Source: an uncultured archaeon (GTDB taxonomy: Archaea > Asgardarchaeota > Thorarchaeia > Thorarchaeales > CAZPUN01). Taken from it: DNA of 32,000 bases. The notes under the pieces were generated by a model. The model saw only the letters and a program-made list of their open reading frames with translations, made no database searches and was not told the origin of the DNA. Of this stretch, positions 4,776 to 19,564 are shown one piece after another (the stretch's first letter is position 1; the number at the start of each line of letters is the position of its first letter). The stretch lies in the NCBI GenBank assembly GCA_964589775.1, contig CAZPUN010000013.1, positions 30,001-62,000 on the forward strand. Direction: 5' to 3'. The position numbers were made by a program, and so were the translations under genes.

Positions 4776-6167
4776 TTATTTTCTTTTTGCATATTGGTAC
4801 ATTAAACCTAATACTTTTGCTGCAGTTTGTGGATCATTATATGTTGGTATTCTATGCTGTTCCAAAAATTCTGTTCCTGGTTTTGCAATTTCTCCTGCCA
4901 TCCATACCGCGATAACTGGCTTTTCTGTCTTTGAATCTTTTATCGCTTCATAAACACCTTCTGCATGTTCTGTTCTTGTCATTCCCATGAATGTTGGTAC
5001 TACGCAACATACAATTACTGCATCTACATTTTTATCTTCAAGTGCAATCTTTGTAGCATTATAATAGTCTTTCTTATTTCCACTTGCAATTACATCAATT
5101 GGATTTGATTTTGACGCAATCGGTATTAATGTCTCATCTAATTTCTTTCTTGATTCTTGCGTAAATGTAGCTAGTGTTAAACCATACTTTGATAGTTCAT
5201 CAGTTGTAAGAACTCCTGCTCCCCCTGCATTCGTTATAATTGCAACTTTATTACCTTTCGGGAGATTCTGAAAAGCAAATCCTAACGAGACATTAAATAG
5301 GTCATACAAATTATCTACTTCAATTGCTCCGACTTGTTTTATTACAGCTTCAAAAATCTTATGTGATCCTGCTAATGATCCTGTATGTGATGAAACTGCT
5401 TTTGCACCCTCTGGTGATTTTCCTGCTTTTAAAATTACTAATGGTTTTTTCTCAGATGCATATTTTGCAGCATCCATAAACTCTCTTCCATCTTTTACTC
5501 CTTCTACATATAATGCAATTACTTTTGTATGTTTGTCCTCTGAAATGATTTTTAATAATTCTGAAAATCCTATATCTGTGGAATTTCCAATACTTGCAAA
5601 TTTGCTTAGACCAATACCCCGTTCTCTTAACCAGTATACTGAAGCTGCACCAAGAGCTCCGCTTTGTGAAATGAATGAAATATCTCCTTTATCTGGATCC
5701 ATAATAAATGTACCATTAAAATTAATTGTCTTATTTATAATTCCAACACAATTTGGCCCTATGAATCTTATATTATATTTTTTCGCAATTTCTTTCAATG
5801 AATTTTCTAATTTTTCTCCCTCTTCTCCAATTTCACTAAATCCTCCTGATAAGACTACAGCATGATGTATGTTTTTCTTATGTAGATCCTCAAATAGATC
5901 TGGAATATATTTTGCAGGAATTATTATTATTGCTAAATCAATATCGTCTGGTATATCTAAAACTGATTTGTAAGCTTTTACACCTAATATTTCATCATCT
6001 GACCTTGATATAGGATATATTGTTATTTCTGCCTTTTGTAAATTCTTCATTATCGTGTATCCAAACTTTTCAGGATTGTTTGATGCACCCACTAACGCTA
6101 CTTTTTTGGGATAAAAGAATTTTTCTAATAAATTTATTAAATTTGTTTTATTTAACAAATTTATCAA
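4776..6167 (-). CDS. acdA: Acetate/acyl-CoA ligase (ADP-forming) alpha subunit
   Basis: CoA-binding VGAS, GPNCVG, SQSGALG, phospho-His motif SHTGSLAG, TNAGGAG, SNPIDV. Confidence 0.92.
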   Translation of the reverse strand: MINLLNKTNLINLLEKFFYPKKVALVGASNNPEKFGYTIMKNLQKAEITIYPISRSDDEILGVKAYKSVLDIPDDIDLAIIIIPAKYIPDLFEDLHKKNIHHAVVLSGGFSEIGEEGEKLENSLKEIAKKYNIRFIGPNCVGIINKTINFNGTFIMDPDKGDISFISQSGALGAASVYWLRERGIGLSKFASIGNSTDIGFSELLKIISEDKHTKVIALYVEGVKDGREFMDAAKYASEKKPLVILKAGKSPEGAKAVSSHTGSLAGSHKIFEAVIKQVGAIEVDNLYDLFNVSLGFAFQNLPKGNKVAIITNAGGAGVLTTDELSKYGLTLATFTQESRKKLDETLIPIASKSNPIDVIASGNKKDYYNATKIALEDKNVDAVIVCCVVPTFMGMTRTEHAEGVYEAIKDSKTEKPVIAVWMAGEIAKPGTEFLEQHRIPTYNDPQTAAKVLGLMYQYAKRK

Positions 6168-6260
6168 CCTCGCGTCCTTTATTTATGTTGATAGAAGTAA
6201 ACTTTATTAAAAAGTCTATCCGTATACGATTTTGTATCCATAAAAAGAGGCGCGCCAATA

Positions 6261-6773
6261 ATGAATACAAAAGAACTTATGAAACATTATTCCGAAATAA
6301 AAAGAACTTTAAACGACCCTATTGTTAAAATATTGCTTGAAAACTCTCATTTAACTTTGAAAATGCTTGAAACCCTTTTGATTGATATTCTTCTTGAGGA
6401 CAAATATGACGAAAAAATTCCATATGATGTCAAAGCAAGAATACGTCAGATCGTTGGGGATAGTAACCGAAAAGGTGTATCGCGGGGAGCTTTTAATAGA
6501 ACTTTACGTCAAGCGCGATTAAATATCATTAAGTCTATGTATACACTTTTACTTATTGGTTATCTTGGATTATTGGATGGTCCTATTTTCCAGCCTTATA
6601 TCTCTCTGTCTCAAAATATTCGAAATTTCATTGAAACACAAGATGAAGTTTGGTCTAGATATCTTGAGGGTAAAGCTACTGAAGAAGATCTTGTAATTAT
6701 CCAGACTTTGCAACAAAATATTGTTGGATTACTCCAGAATCTATCTCATCCTCTTTCACTCTCAAATAAATAA
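6261..6773 (+). CDS. Uncharacterised archaeal protein with Tfx/sigma-region-4-like HTH
   Basis: VSRGAFNRTLRQARLNIIKS resembles a recognition helix of Tfx-type HTH proteins; transcribed divergently from acdA. Confidence 0.55.
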   Translation: MNTKELMKHYSEIKRTLNDPIVKILLENSHLTLKMLETLLIDILLEDKYDEKIPYDVKARIRQIVGDSNRKGVSRGAFNRTLRQARLNIIKSMYTLLLIGYLGLLDGPIFQPYISLSQNIRNFIETQDEVWSRYLEGKATEEDLVIIQTLQQNIVGLLQNLSHPLSLSNK

Positions 6774-6823
6774 TATTTTTTATAATATTATTATTCTTAT
6801 TTTTTCTATTAAATTTATTATGC

Positions 6824-9178
6824 TTATTTGAATATACCGTATATTGCTTGGCCAGCTGAAATTCCTCCATCTCCTGGTGGTATTTTTCTATGTTGGATAT
6901 ATTGTATTTTTTCACTTTCTATTCTACGCTTCATAATTTCTGAAATATATGTATTTAATGCAACCCCACCGGTAAATCCTATTTTTTTGACATCATACGT
7001 TTTTGCGAGATCTATCGCTATTGATGATAATCCAACTGCTATAGCATCTAATATTGCATATGCTATGTTCTCCCTAGAAATTCCTTTTTCAATAGCTTCA
7101 TATACCTCTCTAAGAATGTTTTTGACATCAAGTATAATTAAATTATTATTTTTATTATTTATAATATATTTATCTGATTTAATAATAAAATCTCCTTTCC
7201 TCGCACTAGCCTCAAGTTTCATTGGGCATTCGCCCTCATATGAATTTTCATTACAAATTCCTAATGCTAGTGCAGTTGCATCCAAAAATCTGCCCAGGCT
7301 TGTTGATTCAAATGCATTGATTCTTTGATCGATCTGCTTTAGTAGAATCTGCAATGTGTTTTCATTAAGAATTCTGTTCTCTGATATTTTTTTATTAAAT
7401 ATATTTTTCCTAATAATTTTATTATCTAATTCATCTTTCATATATGCTATAAGCGTCCTTACAGGGTATTTTGCTGCAAGATCTCCTCCCGGTATAATAA
7501 CTTTATTAATTGTAGCAATTCTATTAAATTTATTATAATTATTAAGAAAAATCTCACCACCCCAATTAGTACCGTCATTCCCATATCCATAGCCATCACA
7601 AGATATTGTTATCATTTCTTGATCCATTGGAATATTATTATCGACCATAAGTGAAAGTGCATGTGCGAAATGATGTTGAATTTGTACGAATTTTGCCTGA
7701 TATTTTCGAGATAATTCTTTTCCTAATTCCGTAGTATAAAAGTCTGGATGAAGATCTGATACAACAATATCTGGTTTCTTTATTCCAAAAATTTTCATAA
7801 AATGATTTATGGCGTTGATTAGAAAATCTAGATTGTCTGGATTTTTTGTATCTCCAATATGCTGTGTCTGATATATTTTGTCGTTGATTAATATTGAAGC
7901 AGTGTTCTTTAGTTCAGCTCCAAGTGACAAAACAATTTTATCTGAAACAATGGGTATTTTGATTGGCTCTGGAACATATCCTCTGGCTCTTCTTATGAAT
8001 GTTGGAATTTCATTAATAAATTTAATAACACTATCATCAGCTCTTTGAATTATTCTTCTATTATGCAATAAGTGATAATCAACAATTCCTGATGTATATT
8101 TTATTGCCATTTCTTGACTAATTGCCATAGGCTGACCTGATTCATTTGCACTTGTCATTACTAGAGTTGGTAGATCTAAATCATCAAATAATATGTAATG
8201 TGTTCCTGTGTATGGAAGCATTACTCCGACAGTATCTAATCCTGGTGCAATATATTTTGAAATAAATTTATTATTTTTATTAGAAAAAATATTTTTATTA
8301 ATTTTGATAGTTATAATAGGCCTTCTCCATGATTGTAATAGTTCAATCTCTTTTTCGCTTGGCTTAGCAAATTCTAGAAGGTCATCTATTGATCGGACCA
8401 TTATTGCAAAAGGTCTACTTGGTCTTTTCTTTCTATTTCGTAATCTGATTATTATTGAATCTTCATAAGCTTTACAAGCTATATGAGTTCCACCTATTCC
8501 CATAATTGATACTATTTTATTTTGAATAATATATTCTGCAATTCTTTTAATTGGGTCTTCACAGGGTATTTCAAATCCGTTTCTATCATAAACTCTATAT
8601 TGTGGACCACAATTAGTGCAACATGTGGTTTGCGCATGAAATCGTCTATCTAACGGATCTGTATATTCTTTATAACACTCATCACAAAATGGAAAATCCT
8701 TCATTGTCGTATTTGGCCTATCATAAGGTAGTTGAGTTATAGTTGTAAATCTTGGTCCACATTCTGCACATGAAGTAAATGGATATCTATATCTTCTATA
8801 TTCATTTTTTGAGAATAATTCTGAAATGCACTTATTACAAATTGCTATGTCGGGTGGAAATATTGGTGTTTTTGATTTTTTATTTTCATCTGATTTTATA
8901 ATATTAAATTTATTATACCTTTTATTTTTTATATTTTTATTAAATTTAATAATTTTATTATCTATCCTTCCAATTGATGGAATGTCATTTTCTAATTGAT
9001 ATAAGAATTTCTCAATATCTTGAAAATCCCCTTCAACAACAATTTTTACTTTTCCATCGCCAGTATTTTTTACATATCCTGTTAAATTATTCTTTATAGC
9101 GATCCTATATACAAAGGGTCGGAATCCAATTCCTTGTACTATTCCTGTAACTTCTATATCTGCTCTAGTTTGCACCAC
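6824..9178 (-). CDS. hypF: [NiFe]-hydrogenase maturation carbamoyltransferase HypF
   Basis: Acylphosphatase GIVQGIGFRPF, two Zn fingers, YrdC-like domain, QHHFAH, PGDGGISAGQ. Confidence 0.97.
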   Translation of the reverse strand: MVQTRADIEVTGIVQGIGFRPFVYRIAIKNNLTGYVKNTGDGKVKIVVEGDFQDIEKFLYQLENDIPSIGRIDNKIIKFNKNIKNKRYNKFNIIKSDENKKSKTPIFPPDIAICNKCISELFSKNEYRRYRYPFTSCAECGPRFTTITQLPYDRPNTTMKDFPFCDECYKEYTDPLDRRFHAQTTCCTNCGPQYRVYDRNGFEIPCEDPIKRIAEYIIQNKIVSIMGIGGTHIACKAYEDSIIIRLRNRKKRPSRPFAIMVRSIDDLLEFAKPSEKEIELLQSWRRPIITIKINKNIFSNKNNKFISKYIAPGLDTVGVMLPYTGTHYILFDDLDLPTLVMTSANESGQPMAISQEMAIKYTSGIVDYHLLHNRRIIQRADDSVIKFINEIPTFIRRARGYVPEPIKIPIVSDKIVLSLGAELKNTASILINDKIYQTQHIGDTKNPDNLDFLINAINHFMKIFGIKKPDIVVSDLHPDFYTTELGKELSRKYQAKFVQIQHHFAHALSLMVDNNIPMDQEMITISCDGYGYGNDGTNWGGEIFLNNYNKFNRIATINKVIIPGGDLAAKYPVRTLIAYMKDELDNKIIRKNIFNKKISENRILNENTLQILLKQIDQRINAFESTSLGRFLDATALALGICNENSYEGECPMKLEASARKGDFIIKSDKYIINNKNNNLIILDVKNILREVYEAIEKGISRENIAYAILDAIAVGLSSIAIDLAKTYDVKKIGFTGGVALNTYISEIMKRRIESEKIQYIQHRKIPPGDGGISAGQAIYGIFK

Positions 9179-9326
9179 AATTCCTCATTTCTATGATTTT
9201 TACTAATATTTATTGCGATAAATTAAAATGTATTCCGATTGTAATACATAAAATAAAATTATAATTTCCAATAAATTTATTTGAAATAATAAAATTAATA
9301 ATTTAATTATATTTAATAGGAGAGAT

Positions 9327-10298
9327 GTGGTTGCAATGATTATAGATGAATCTGCATTTTTCAAGCATTTTAACGTACGTAAGGAGACAATACAAAAGTG
9401 GCATAATAAAGTAGGTTTTTCGTCCTCCCCGTTTAAAGGATTCAAAATGCCTGACCCTAGATTATATGTTGAGCACTCCGAATTTTTGGATGAAATGGTT
9501 GATATTATTATCACAAATGAACGACATATATTTTTAAGAGGTCCTATCGGTATTGGAAAATCAACTCTAATGCTTTTAGCTTTGAGAGACCTTCCAAATC
9601 TAACAGATAGACGTGGTCGTGAATTTGTTGTTGGCTATGTTGGTATGACGGGCTTATACGAAAAGCAAATGGCAGCTGCAATAGCTAATGCTTTGCGTAT
9701 TAAATATAAACGAAGCTGGGAATCGCAACAAATTATTGATGAAATAGCTAAAGTTACACTGAAACGATATATTGAAGAAAACAAAAGATCTGTACTGTTT
9801 ATTGAAGATGTAGCTGATAATCAAGAAAACAGTTTTCATAAACTTAGATATTTAGCAGATCTTCCATCGCAAGAAATGATTGATGAATATCATATTGATG
9901 AACCAATTATTACTCTTGTTATGAGTGGTACTCCCGAATATTGGTCTGCAATGGTTAACTTCTTACCACAAATTGCAGATCGTACAGAACCTCTAGACGT
10001 TCCCCCAATGAATGTTGATCAAACAAAAGAATTCATCGGGCGTCGTATATATTATGCTCGGGGTGATTTAGATAATTTTGACCCTAACGATTATGACCTT
10101 TATCCCTTTGAGGTAGAGGCTGTTGAAGTTCTACATGATGCAGCAAAGGGTGTGCCTCGTGATATTCGAATGTTGGGTCGTGCATGTGAGCAACTAGCGG
10201 CTGAGAATTATAAAAATACTAATGACCCTGTCATATCCCAGAAAATTGCTGAATTGGTTGCTGAAGCATATCAATCAATTTTTGAGGAGGTTAAATAA
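9327..10298 (+). CDS. ExeA/GspA-like AAA+ ATPase
   Basis: N-terminal GF..SPF...PDP motif, Walker A GPIGIGKST, variant Walker B VLFIED, IADR, sensor-2-like GVPRDI. Confidence 0.75.
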   Translation: MVAMIIDESAFFKHFNVRKETIQKWHNKVGFSSSPFKGFKMPDPRLYVEHSEFLDEMVDIIITNERHIFLRGPIGIGKSTLMLLALRDLPNLTDRRGREFVVGYVGMTGLYEKQMAAAIANALRIKYKRSWESQQIIDEIAKVTLKRYIEENKRSVLFIEDVADNQENSFHKLRYLADLPSQEMIDEYHIDEPIITLVMSGTPEYWSAMVNFLPQIADRTEPLDVPPMNVDQTKEFIGRRIYYARGDLDNFDPNDYDLYPFEVEAVEVLHDAAKGVPRDIRMLGRACEQLAAENYKNTNDPVISQKIAELVAEAYQSIFEEVK

Positions 10299-10597
10299 TG
10301 CCCACTGTATTAGGAAAATATCGGAAAGAGGTATTAGAGCCTCCTGAGAAAAAAACAACTCATGTATCAAAAGAACCTACAAAAACTAAAGTAACTGCAA
10401 AAAAACGAGGTCGAAAGCCTATTCCTGATAAACGTGTGATTTTTACATGTAGTATCGAATCTGATTTATTAGAATGCCTTAAAACCATTAGTAAAGAACA
10501 GTTTTTAAATTTAAGTCGATGGACTGAACAGAAATTAATTCAAGCGGTTATTCGTGAATTTCCAGAATATGCAGAAAAATATGGAATTAAAAAATAA
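10298..10597 (+). CDS. Small DNA-binding protein: disordered basic N-terminus, AT-hook-like KKRGRKP, ribbon-helix-helix-like C-terminus
   Basis: Alternating strand RVIFTCSI, helix SDLLECLKTISKE, NLSRWTEQKLIQAV. Start overlaps the ATPase stop (TAATG); GAGGAGG SD. Confidence 0.65.
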   Translation: MPTVLGKYRKEVLEPPEKKTTHVSKEPTKTKVTAKKRGRKPIPDKRVIFTCSIESDLLECLKTISKEQFLNLSRWTEQKLIQAVIREFPEYAEKYGIKK

Positions 10598-10740
10598 ATT
10601 TATTATTGTTTATATTTTTATTATTTTTATTTTTTATATTATTTTTATTATTCCTATTATTAATAATCTTTACACAATATTTTTATGTATATTATATTAT
10701 CCAAAAATTGTTAGTGAATTACTACTGGAGTGATATATCA

Positions 10741-11007
10741 ATGGAAAATCGTGCACTAAGTATCATGAAATCCTTTGCGGTACTAATGGGGCTTGCATCA
10801 TTAGCTGGTATTGGTATATTTTTTGTATTTGACATTGCATTAACTATAAAATCAATGAGTCTTCCATGGCTAGCCATATATTCATTTGTAATTACCTTTG
10901 CAAGTATCAAGCTTATGGAAGAAAATCCATCAAAAAGCTATTTTAATCAATGGATTATTGGATTAGTCTTTGGAGCATTTCTAGTGGCTTTAATATTCAT
11001 TGTGTAA
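10741..11007 (+). CDS. Small membrane protein (about 3 TM helices)
   Basis: ATG 10741 with GGAGTGA SD; three hydrophobic segments. The extension back to 10606 is low-complexity intergenic DNA. Confidence 0.7.
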   Translation: MENRALSIMKSFAVLMGLASLAGIGIFFVFDIALTIKSMSLPWLAIYSFVITFASIKLMEENPSKSYFNQWIIGLVFGAFLVALIFIV

Positions 11008-12937: not shown

Positions 12938-13229
12938 GTTGATCTCCTACAAAACGTATTGAACCAAAGTTTTAAGAAGGTATTATGCGAAAGAATCATT
13001 TGAAATTAATCATCATGGGATATGATAAAAAATCCCATTTGTATTACAATCATTAAAAATATCAATCTTAAGATAAATGCATAATTGATGATTTATGATT
13101 ATCAATGATTTCACAATGCATTGTGAATTGAATGATTGATAATTTCGTGATCATGCTACAAGAAATTGTGGGCAATCATATTTCAAATCAATTATATTAT
13201 CATAATCACGCTTATAGGAGAAAACTCGT

Positions 13230-17427: not shown

Positions 17428-18362
17428 TATTTTATTTTACTTCTCACGTTAATTTGCGATAATAATTGACATGTTTTACAAATTTCTCCTGATGTTGGCG
17501 CACCACATATTTTACATTTATTTAATGGGCGTTTTTTACCTATATTTTGTATATGTGGATGAATTTGTAAAAATGTTCTTAATATTGCGAACATTGTACC
17601 CGGTCTTTTTTCTTCCATTGAATCTATAAAATATCTTATGTCATTTCTCATTGCTTCAGAGCTATATGGACATTTTTCCTGTTGATATTTAATACCTTTA
17701 AATTTTGCAAACAACTCAATTTCATATTCTGGGATCTCAAATAATGGTTTAACACGCGGTATGAAATTTTCATGTTTATATGTTAATTTTGGTCCGATTC
17801 GTGCTAAGTGGTGTGCATCGCCTCTAAGAAAGTTCATTATTATTGTTTGGGCTTGATCATTTAGATTATGCCCAGTTGCTATTACTGTTGCATTATGCTT
17901 CTTAGCTAACCAATTCAATGCAGATCGTTTCATTACGCCACAATAGGCGCATGGTGTTAATTTAGAATCCTTAATTTTTAATACAAGTTCATCTAATGTT
18001 ATTCCAAATATTTCCTTAAAAGTATATGATATTAATGGGATTTCCAATTTCTCAATATTTTCTTTTATAATTTGTTGTGTTATTTTACTATATTCTCCTG
18101 CTAATTCATTTATATTAATTGCAAATATTTCAGTTTCCGGATATTTTTTCTCGATCTCAGATAATATGTGTAATAAGACTATACTATCTTTTCCTCCAGA
18201 AACGCCAACTGCAATTTTGTCATCTAACTTAAACATAGAAAACTTGTTAATCGTTCGTCTTACTCTATCTATTATATTTTTAATAAAACATGAAGAACAT
18301 AGCGGCTCGCCTGAATAGGGTCTCACATAAACTGCAGGCTTGCCGCATTTATTACATTGCAT
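17424..18362 (-). CDS. ttuA: TtuA/Ncs6-family tRNA 2-thiolation protein
   Basis: N- and C-terminal Zn fingers, PP-loop SGGKDS, CAYCGV, TGHNLND, CPY. Confidence 0.9.
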   Translation of the reverse strand: MQCNKCGKPAVYVRPYSGEPLCSSCFIKNIIDRVRRTINKFSMFKLDDKIAVGVSGGKDSIVLLHILSEIEKKYPETEIFAININELAGEYSKITQQIIKENIEKLEIPLISYTFKEIFGITLDELVLKIKDSKLTPCAYCGVMKRSALNWLAKKHNATVIATGHNLNDQAQTIIMNFLRGDAHHLARIGPKLTYKHENFIPRVKPLFEIPEYEIELFAKFKGIKYQQEKCPYSSEAMRNDIRYFIDSMEEKRPGTMFAILRTFLQIHPHIQNIGKKRPLNKCKICGAPTSGEICKTCQLLSQINVRSKIKY

Positions 18363-18379
18363 TTTTCATTACCTATTCT

Positions 18380-19564
18380 TTACAATAATGGTTTTCCGGT
18401 TAAGAATGTCATTATAAAGTTCAAAGCTAATATTACCAATGATAATAGTCTTACTGAATTAAGAATTATTGATTTTGCTTTGATTTCTTTCTGTTTTATT
18501 ATAATATGTTTTTCCTTTAGTGCTTTTGTTAATAGGTCCGATAATAAATAGTCTCCATCCAATGGTATGAGGGGTAATAAATTGAACATTCCAACGCTTA
18601 TTAAGACAATCATGGACCATGTTAGTGTCATATATAGATGTGTTGACACCATTGGATCTATCCATGTTGCCCATGGTCTTGGTGGATAATATGTTGTTCC
18701 ATATATTCCTATATAACCTATATTTGGATTCGATGGATTTGTTCCAAGTGTAAGTTGTAAAATTCCATTGGATGTGTTTATTATGAGAATGCTTCCTGGT
18801 GTTGTATTTTGCATAAACATACCTAAATCTGTCCATGTTTCTATTTGGGTGCCATTTAATGAATATATTATTGTTCCTGGTGTAATTACACCATCTGCAG
18901 GTCCACCTTGTTGAATATTATATACATATACTCCTGCCGCAGGTTGATTTGTTAAGGAGATTAATGCAGGAAAATTCATAATCATAATCATAAACAAAAA
19001 TCCAAAAATGATATTTGAAAATGAGCCTGCGCCATAGACTCTCATTCTTTTTCTAATTGGTGCTTTTTTAATGACTTCTTCATCTGGTTCAACAAATCCA
19101 CCAATTAATACTAAGAGAAATACTAATCCTGAACTTTTTACGGGAATATCATCTGCTTCGGCAGCTATTCCATGAGCTAATTCATGAGTAAGTAATGTAA
19201 TTGTTAGGCCTATTAATATGTAGACCAATGGCATTCCTGAAACTGTAATTCCTGGGATTATCGGTACTACAGCTCCTGCATTTGCTGGCGCCGTAAAGAA
19301 TGCAACTAAATTCATATATAGTGTATAAAATATGTATCCCATTCCAAAGAAACCAACTACAATTCCTAAATCCCATAGCGCTCTCCAAAAGCGTGGTGAT
19401 TTCTTTGCGATTTTCCTTAGAAATTGGTTTAATCTCTCTGTTTTATACATTATCATAAATGGCGCAATTTCAATGCCTCTCTTCTTTACATCAAAACTTT
19501 TTCCAATTGCCATGATTATTATCCAAATGATTAATAATACAATCCACGGATTTAATTCTAGCAT
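18380..19564 (-). CDS. Site-2 protease (M50) with PDZ-like insert
   Basis: HELAH, GGFVEPD, AGSFSN, NLLPLIPLDG; multiple TM segments. Confidence 0.93.
   Translation of the reverse strand: MLELNPWIVLLIIWIIIMAIGKSFDVKKRGIEIAPFMIMYKTERLNQFLRKIAKKSPRFWRALWDLGIVVGFFGMGYIFYTLYMNLVAFFTAPANAGAVVPIIPGITVSGMPLVYILIGLTITLLTHELAHGIAAEADDIPVKSSGLVFLLVLIGGFVEPDEEVIKKAPIRKRMRVYGAGSFSNIIFGFLFMIMIMNFPALISLTNQPAAGVYVYNIQQGGPADGVITPGTIIYSLNGTQIETWTDLGMFMQNTTPGSILIINTSNGILQLTLGTNPSNPNIGYIGIYGTTYYPPRPWATWIDPMVSTHLYMTLTWSMIVLISVGMFNLLPLIPLDGDYLLSDLLTKALKEKHIIIKQKEIKAKSIILNSVRLLSLVILALNFIMTFLTGKPLL

Follow-up and report, generated by a model that had tools for sequence, protein, structure and literature searches.

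The described systems closest in layout to the locus treated here are the DNA partition systems of type Ib, represented by ParF-ParG-parH of TP228 and delta-omega of pSM19035, in which a nucleoside triphosphatase (NTPase) gene comes first and is followed by that of a small centromere-binding protein (CBP) having a flexible N-tail of basic residues and a C-terminal ribbon-helix-helix (RHH) fold, with short repeats clustered around the operon, promoter included. A two-gene operon is also described from an archaeal chromosome, SegAB of the Sulfolobales (PMC8682754; PMC12139799); in SegB, an RHH protein, the unstructured N-terminus stimulates the SegA ATPase, and the protein binds sites adjoining the operon (PMC8682754). 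The locus in question, an operon of an AAA+ ATPase gene and a small adaptor gene, lies in a stretch of 32,000 nucleotides (nt), here called the window, of contig CAZPUN010000013.1 from an uncultured Asgard archaeon (assembly GCA_964589775.1; genome 2.16 Mb, 32% GC). No other genome of the source family has been sampled, and a metagenome scan for close relatives gave one 1-kb fragment.

At a probability of about 0.5, the operon is read as encoding a partition-like or origin-domain-organizing nucleoprotein machine that would be widespread in several Asgard lineages. The original prediction had proposed a system analogous to type Ib but built on an AAA+ ATPase; the layout, with a tailed RHH protein encoded after the NTPase and a cluster of boxes around both genes, bears this out, while the role in segregation is something we infer. 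As in type Ib, the NTPase gene precedes that of the small protein, whose flexible basic N-tail and C-terminal RHH find their best structural match in omega, and short repeats cluster around the operon and in its promoter. Unlike type Ib, the NTPase belongs to the ORC/ExeA clade of AAA+ proteins, with a classical Walker A, sensors 1 and 2 and a candidate arginine finger, and the module is chromosomal and conserved across an archaeal phylum, known here from sequence and models. With SegAB it shares the two-gene archaeal chromosomal operon and the RHH partner, SegB being among the structural matches of the small protein; however, SegA is of the ParA type, neither protein is related in sequence to the Asgard pair, and the Asgard box fields are larger (4.5-13 kb) and change their box sequence between families. 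No published description of the ATPase/small-gene pair was found in the literature, nor any SegAB or ParABS report for the module-bearing Asgard lineages. Asgard archaea are the closest prokaryotic relatives of eukaryotes, and an ORC-like ATPase with an RHH adaptor and a box field by the origin would make a concrete, testable candidate for their chromosome segregation or organization; if the reading is true, a partition-type system would for the first time be seen to run on an AAA+ motor of the initiator clade.

The ATPase and its tailed partner of predicted RHH fold

The operon comprises the following features.

9327-10298, + strand: AAA+ ATPase gene, 323 amino acids (aa), GTG start, with an in-frame ATG at 9336
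10284-10300, + strand: coupling signal, a GAGGAGG Shine-Dalgarno sequence within the ATPase 3' end plus the TAATG overlap
10298-10597, + strand: small adaptor gene, 99 aa

The stop codon TAA (10296-10298) and the start codon ATG (10298-10300) share one base, 10298, and the Shine-Dalgarno sequence at 10284-10290 stands 7 nt 5' of the small-gene ATG; together these form a predicted translational coupling signal. The overlap was part of the original prediction, as were the two nucleotide-binding motifs, and all three hold. Walker A (GPIGIGKST, residues 72-80) is classical and not the deviant KGGxxGK of ParA, and Walker B (LFIEDV) has the acidic pair E160-D161, an ED that is kept in Thorarchaeota and replaced by DD in two other families and by canonical DE in a family with genomes of ~1.4 Mb. 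With catalytic roles assigned by position in the structural model, T202 is sensor 1, R219 (in PQIADR) a candidate arginine finger and R278 (in GxPRDIR) sensor 2. Across 46 homologue sequences there is no variation at G75, G77, K78, T202 or R278, and conservation at D161 and R219 is at least 90%. Because the invariant K78, T202 and R278 and the near-invariant D161 and R219 fit the AAA+ motif set, an oligomer hydrolyzing ATP between its subunits is implied, and with the full motif set present the ATPase is predicted to form a catalytically competent AAA+ oligomer.

The nearest sequence profile is TIGR03015 (ExeA-like, PEP-CTERM-associated), matched over nearly the full length at E 1.3e-11 but with 44.5 bits against a cut-off of 324.5, which places the ATPase outside that family. 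Pfam AAA_22 (PF13401) is assigned to several homologues in precomputed tables, and the window protein scores 26.4 bits against a gathering cut-off of 27. The Orc1/Cdc6 family TIGR02928 does not include it either (15.7 bits, cut-off 181.3). No match to AAA_31 or CbiA was obtained at E<=1, whereas a true ParA from another Asgard genome gave E 1e-53 in the same search, and the ATPase is not of the ParA/SegA type. General ExeA-like proteins align over the full ATPase length at about 1e-18, the alignment to the ExeA-like profile covers the whole ATPase domain including an N-terminal PF motif, and homologues are annotated at JGI as 'type II secretory pathway predicted ATPase ExeA'. A sequence search of the PDB gave P-loop-level matches only for the ATPase and none for the small protein.

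The model of the ATPase has a mean predicted local distance difference test score (pLDDT) of 90 and consists of an AAA+ base and lid, with a pair of helices separating strands 2 and 3; it stops after the lid at residue 323, with no winged helix (WH) domain, membrane segment or peptidoglycan-binding domain. Its best structural matches are Drosophila Cdc6 (Z 19.8, root-mean-square deviation (rmsd) 2.8 A over 251 residues), Sulfolobus solfataricus Cdc6/Orc1 (Z 19.2), Aeropyrum pernix ORC2 (Z 18.9), ShCAST TnsC (Z 17.7) and MuB (Z 17.3), with generic AAA+ proteins at about 15 or less, and Foldseek puts the same families on top. The protein originally called ExeA-like is so at the superfamily level of sequence only; by its modeled fold it is Cdc6/Orc1-TnsC-MuB-like. 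It groups with the ORC/Cdc6-TnsC-MuB-ExeA part of AAA+ and not with archaellum, pilus or gas-vesicle ATPases, a grouping that would have told against the original prediction.

Three described groups share this part of AAA+ with the Asgard ATPase. Archaeal Orc1/Cdc6 proteins resemble it in base and lid (Z 19-20), in the GxPRDIR sensor 2, in the helix pair placed between strands 2 and 3 in the manner of the initiator-specific motif, and in having a gene that adjoins an origin; they differ in their winged helix, and the TIGR02928 score lies far under the cut-off. Since the Asgard ATPase has no winged helix, its DNA targeting would need to be supplied in trans. TnsC, MuB and TniB belong to the same clade (Z about 17), likewise have no sequence-specific DNA-binding domain of their own, and assemble on DNA with ATP, switched by a terminal peptide of the partner; MuB works as a diffusion-ratchet, like ParA. 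By contrast, the Asgard ATPase has no transposase partner, is single-copy and vertically inherited, and is paired with an RHH protein. The fact that ORC, TnsC and MuB relatives assemble on DNA with ATP and are peptide-switched makes a ParA-like action mechanistically plausible for it. ExeA/GspA and TIGR03015 proteins (AAA_22, COG3267) give the nearest sequence profile and align over the full ATPase domain, but the Asgard protein has none of the membrane or peptidoglycan-binding parts or the secretion context.

The small protein is modeled as disordered at residues 11-41 (pLDDT <50) and confidently folded at residues 45-99 (about 80), with a strand at about 45-54, helices at 55-68 and 72-87 and an extra helix at 89-95. 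Residues 1-44 hold 13 K/R against 5 D/E, in agreement with the flexible basic N-tail originally proposed. Its best fold match is the omega repressor 2bnw (Z 4.8, rmsd 1.7 A, 49/49 residues), and the top matches are mostly RHH proteins, SegB and ParG among them; the Z values are low, as is to be expected of a 49-residue half-dimer, and the weight lies in the consistency of RHH folds through the match list. No Pfam match was found, and the best PHROG hit was Arc-like at only E 0.038. On the model, the protein is a tailed member of the RHH (Arc/MetJ/CopG) superfamily, and the RHH-like C-terminus read earlier from sequence agrees with the fold search.

The window protein begins with (M)PTVLGKYRKE, a conserved N-terminal peptide: homologues begin MSLLGKYRKE (variants MSVLKKYRD and MSLLQKYRKE), followed by a variable charged linker and a conserved C-terminal block. 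In four distant families the ORF (open reading frame) after the ATPase has a different basic N-terminal peptide (e.g., FAERFKKIDGG) and an RHH-patterned C-terminus. KKRGRKP, described in the original prediction as AT-hook-like, is present at residues 35-41, inside the variable linker, and is lineage-specific: it is confined to the window protein and the two proteins nearest to it, and ~110 other homologues lack it. Its RGRKP differs from the canonical RGRP core, and it is not an AT-hook proper. The window lineage is the sole one with a basic adaptor tail carrying such a motif.

Palindromic box fields around the operon

An unbiased k-mer test in the window picked the palindrome AATAAATTTATT, of which the 2.16-Mb genome has six perfect copies, four of them within 4.5 kb around the operon. 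Counting a relaxed form (WWTAAATTTAWW) together with the perfect one, 9 of the 51 boxes in the genome lie inside 6127-10604.

6127-6138: perfect AATAAATTTATT, divergent junction of the CoA ligase gene ACS (see below) and orf170
6808, 7523, 8015, 8903 and 8939 (6808-8950): five relaxed boxes WWTAAATTTAWW, at the orf170/hypF junction and within hypF
8261-8272: perfect AATAAATTTATT inside hypF, coding N-K-F-I in a variable, insertion-bearing stretch
9228-9249: inverted repeat ATGTATT-N8-AATACAT with one GTAATAC, in the ATPase promoter region, candidate operator
9270-9281: perfect AATAAATTTATT in the ATPase promoter region
10593-10604: perfect AATAAATTTATT over the small-gene stop codon

In hypF (6824-9178) AAATTTA-type boxes are written five times as N-K-F codons, twice within a stretch where the lineage has insertions of its own; the hypF-internal boxes code N-K-F-type tripeptides in variable or inserted stretches.

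A different box prevails in the sister Thorarchaeota family. An upstream alignment of loci from that family and its relatives revealed, in 69 of 79, an element of 27 nt that lies 3' of the TATA box and 5' of the ATPase start, consisting of three 9-bp units each ending in TAC (TTGTATTAC, AAGAAGTAC and TTGTGATAC) with invariant blocks; it is a candidate operator. An RNA hairpin was considered for this element and disfavored: the inner variable positions pair in only 20 and 24 of 33 distinct sequences, no compensatory changes are seen and the 'loop' bases are invariant, so that a protein site is favored, though not decisively. The heptamer GTAWTAC occurs 10-25 times per 20-kb sister-family locus against 2-4 expected, mostly between genes and often as 9-bp tandems. 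Genome-wide, TGTAWTACA is no commoner than its reversed control, and its copies pile up at the operon. Fields of other sequence are found in further families.

Complete 2.58-Mb sister-family chromosome: TGTAWTACA, 7 of 8 copies within 13 kb of the operon
Another sister-family genome: TGTAWTACA, 15 of 22 copies within 10.5 kb of the operon
Family labeled Heimdall/Gerdarchaeota: TGTAATACA, 7 per 20 kb against 0.3 expected
Complete 3.58-Mb genome of another family: GATATC in pairs spaced by 12-13 bp; 8 of the 9 pairs fall within 11.4 kb, from cdc6 to beyond HypF

Around the operon lies a field of palindromic boxes that is specific to the lineage and, within each genome, unique or nearly unique. 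The clustered repeats of a type Ib layout are present by statistical clustering, and the boxes are predicted binding sites. The GTAWTAC field is absent from the source genome (7 heptamers in the window against 5.3 expected; 360 genome-wide, without enrichment), and the imperfect GTAWTAC pair at 9228-9249 is a local remnant of the sister-family promoter element. That an all-A/T box and a minor-groove-type KKRGRKP motif occur together in the source genome is a co-variation in one lineage, and suggestive; the natural box switch offers a built-in test of specificity.

As a separate observation, a TGTATTACA box lies at 13040-13048, in the long spacer 5' of dnaG, and its only other copy on the contig is in the ATPase promoter.

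Distribution, synteny and relatives on plasmids

The original prediction called the ATPase an orphan, a misnomer, since the pair is conserved as a family across Asgard lineages. In a sample of 300 genomes of the phylum the ATPase/small-gene module was present in seven Asgard families, the source family included; in the source genome the ATPase is single-copy.

Sister Thorarchaeota family: ATPase in 70 of 77 genomes, 62-69% identity to the window protein
Family labeled Heimdall/Gerdarchaeota at NCBI: ATPase in 8 of 11 genomes (9 by profile), 42-45% identity
Four further Asgard families: ATPase in all or nearly all members, 23-33% identity, profile E 1e-87 to 1e-119

Strong ATPase matches were found in none of the 28 and 21 genomes of the largest other families, and a 68-genome family gave weak partial matches only. 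The Thorarchaeota label is carried by more than 120 clusters of homologues, about 324 aa long and 62-68% identical. Among 1.84 billion representative proteins, 10 matched at E<=1e-30, all of them the ATPase clade or its fragments, and 897 general ExeA-like representatives came next at E<=1e-10, a distribution indicating a tight clade within the ExeA-like superfamily.

Like every other computational check proposed with the original prediction, that of co-occurrence came out in its favor, the two genes being together in all loci examined. A small ORF of 91-117 aa lies directly 3' of the ATPase in 30/30 and 79/79 evaluable loci of Thorarchaeota and relatives, and one of 113-160 aa in 10/10 loci of distant families. 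In Thorarchaeota the genes mostly stand -4 to +3 nt apart; the distance is about 60 nt in the Heimdall/Gerd-labeled family and about 45-100 nt in most distant families. Identity of the ATPase drops family by family within conserved synteny. By these measures the operon is single-copy, tightly coupled and vertically inherited.

A further syntenic gene accompanies the module.

6261-6773, + strand: orf170, conserved syntenic partner gene, without Pfam match

It lies 0.1-4 kb from the ATPase in all seven module-bearing families, is present in a few others too, and in the L046/L047 family forms one three-gene string with the ATPase and small genes. A sigma-70 region-4-like helix-turn-helix (HTH) is suggested for its product by inspection and by weak Atlas leads. 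Clusters labeled Bathyarchaeota and Nitrososphaerota also contain orf170, as judged from ESM-Atlas features and structure. The sister-family gene order is POR-A, POR-G, HypF, orf170, ACS, small gene, ATPase, V-ATPase D, NAC and Trm5; hypF keeps adjoining orf170 in most families. In distant families the ATPase is beside orf170 and 3-5 kb from the orthologous cdc6 and its winged helix-turn-helix (wHTH) neighbor, and in the two families of smallest genomes an ORF named by eye as the DNA polymerase D small subunit is also near.

In another Asgard family, where orf170 is present and the ATPase clade is absent, ParA and ParB lie between cdc6 and orf170; in a complete genome (L144:6885-8478) they are a canonical ParA (AAA_31, E 1e-53) and a ParB having ParB_N and HTH_ParB. 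In a second family without the ATPase clade (L145:11222-12930), a 434-aa AAA+ protein (ATPase_2 / AAA_22-like) and then a 130-aa ORF with a basic N-terminal peptide stand beside orf170; this pair could represent a third form of the module that has diverged further.

Distant ATPase homologues also occur on seven haloarchaeal plasmids of five genera, pNG100 and six others, which would make the partition idea testable in genetically tractable hosts. On Haloarcula marismortui pNG100 (33 kb) the homologue has 309 aa (24.5% identity over 88% of the query, E 2e-4) and is directly followed by a 101-aa ORF that shares an ERFxK..GG peptide and an RHH-patterned segment, with orc1/cdc6 about 0.9 kb beyond. 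AT-rich elements containing a TTAATATTAAGA-type palindrome stand before, between and after the homologue and the small ORF (17482-17518, 18448-18484 and 18782-18818 of the pNG100 locus, L143), and no ParA-type (PF13614) match was found on the plasmid. A paired ORF of ~100 aa was present in all three of the haloarchaeal plasmids opened, and orc1/cdc6 follows on two of these. ORB (origin recognition box)-like inverted repeats (19285-19553) were also seen to precede orc1/cdc6 on pNG100.

Possible mechanism, alternatives and the origin region

The box fields, the ParA-ParB pair in the same slot and the plasmid-borne relatives are a context that fits a partition-like role. In the mechanism proposed, RHH dimers would bind the boxes (AATAAATTTATT here, GTAWTAC in the sister family) and repress their own promoter, and the ATP-bound ATPase would assemble on DNA, as TnsC, MuB and ORC do. 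The adaptor's N-terminal K-Y-R-K peptide would then contact the ATPase and trigger ATP hydrolysis or disassembly, by analogy with ParG on ParF, SegB on SegA and MuA on MuB, and a local protein gradient or compacted domain would position or separate the origin-side region of the chromosome. A fuller version of this reading, held more tentatively, is that the pair represents a new class of DNA partition system, with an ORC/ExeA-clade AAA+ motor instead of a ParA, actin-like or tubulin-like NTPase. The class would be old in its Asgard lineages, interchangeable in situ with ParABS and found on haloarchaeal plasmids too, its boxes being rewritten between families; the window would then record a switch from GTAWTAC to AATAAATTTATT with a newly gained AT-hook-like tail.

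The alternative that survives best concerns the replication origin, for which the window has these features.

3-629, - strand: cdc6, running off the window's left edge (TIGR02928, 434 bits)
817-845 and 2128-2156: replication origin, inverted ORB-like elements next to cdc6

The inverted ORB pair and the adjoining cdc6 indicate a real origin, about 7 kb from the operon, and the pair could be an accessory to it: a Cdc6/Orc1-like ATPase lacking the winged helix and targeted by the RHH protein would license, fire or silence the origin, as a split initiator or helicase-loading cofactor. Cdc6/Orc1 proteins are indeed the best structural matches of the ATPase, and the nearness to oriC that was claimed originally holds in the window (8.8 kb from operon to cdc6) and in four other families (3-5 kb), so that the pair is 3-9 kb from the main cdc6 in five families of seven. 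The GATATC field of one family covers the cdc6 flanks, and the initiator-type rep gene 3' of the pair on two of three haloarchaeal plasmids points the same way. The sister family nevertheless keeps field and operon together with the main cdc6 (cdc6-1) 74 kb, 166 kb and 1.0 Mb away in three genomes; a second cdc6 is about 34 kb from the operon there. The fields, moreover, take in many intergenic gaps and at 4.5-13 kb greatly exceed an origin in width, it is ParA-ParB and not an initiator that occupies the slot in another family, and the ATPase sequence is ExeA-like, with its TIGR02928 score well short. We regard an origin accessory as unlikely, though a serious candidate.

Local transcription control appears less likely again. 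The RHH protein would be an ordinary autorepressor or a regulator of the neighboring POR, ACS, HypF and V-ATPase D genes, with the ATPase a co-regulator or unrelated; RHH proteins are mostly repressors, many boxes are intergenic and by promoters, and the best-conserved site, between TATA box and operon start, is in the classic repressor position. However, a regulon limited to one patch of 5-13 kb, with gene-internal boxes and few or none elsewhere, would be unusual, and such control does not account for the conserved N-terminal peptide, the ParAB replacement in the slot, the plasmid copies beside rep genes or the strictness with which the small gene is coupled to that of an AAA+ ATPase, 65% conserved and bearing an arginine finger. 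A mobile-element, defense or toxin-antitoxin cassette, composed of an AAA+ effector with an RHH antitoxin or regulator, or a TniB/TnsC-type helper, is very improbable: RHH proteins are common as antitoxins, AAA_22 ATPases include TniB, TnsC and MuB, and relatives are on plasmids, but a single-copy gene whose identity declines family by family in conserved synteny indicates vertical descent, no transposase or integrase is adjacent in the window, PADLOC gave no match (best E 0.007) and PHROG nothing meaningful. Least credible is a secretion or envelope-assembly ATPase like ExeA/GspA or the PEP-CTERM-associated ATPase, as the TIGR03015 match and the JGI 'ExeA' annotation might suggest, given a score far below the family cut-off, a model free of membrane and peptidoglycan-binding parts, no secretion genes nearby and a partner of predicted DNA-binding fold.

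Several points weigh against the partition-like or origin-domain-organizing machine itself. The AATAAATTTATT field is known from one genome, and AT-only words are common at 32% GC, though the genome-wide control allows for that; some gene-internal boxes are at conserved codons and may be coincidental. In three families (L046-L050) the k-mer test, a crude one and not evidence of absence, gave no clear field. The predicted DNA-facing strand residues are, by eye, nearly alike in the window protein (R-I-T-S) and the sister family (S-I-S-S), and orf170 and the wHTH gene adjoining cdc6 encode other possible box readers nearby. The closest sequence homology of the ATPase is to ExeA-like proteins, whose one studied member acts in secretion and not on DNA. 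Finally, 7 of the 77 sister-family genomes are without the ATPase region; since these seven also have no orf170, and the three checked no HypF, the absences look like region-level gaps.

The remaining neighbors in the window are housekeeping genes, including a 2-oxoacid:ferredoxin oxidoreductase (POR) pair, an ADP-forming acyl-CoA synthetase-type CoA ligase (ACS), HypF, V-ATPase subunit D, NAC, a Trm5-like methylase, DnaG and aRF1. No secretion, pilin, transposase or integrase genes are among the annotated neighbors, as was stated in the original prediction. A hydrophobic ORF of 133 aa at 10606-11007, between the small gene and V-ATPase subunit D, is weakly conserved (~30% identity) at the same position in two sister-family loci (L031 and L037). 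Around the origin core, identical 19-mers AGAACATATGTTCTAAAAT flank it at 1949-1967 and 2167-2185, near the ORB-like elements, and the palindrome AACATATGT, shared by these 19-mers, is also the most strongly enriched word around cdc6 in a distant Asgard family (L050). In two distant families (L045-L047) a Cas2/VapD-like ORF of ~118 aa, identified by eye, and a wHTH ORF lie between cdc6 and the operon, an arrangement that matches the window's origin region (1082-1582 and after).

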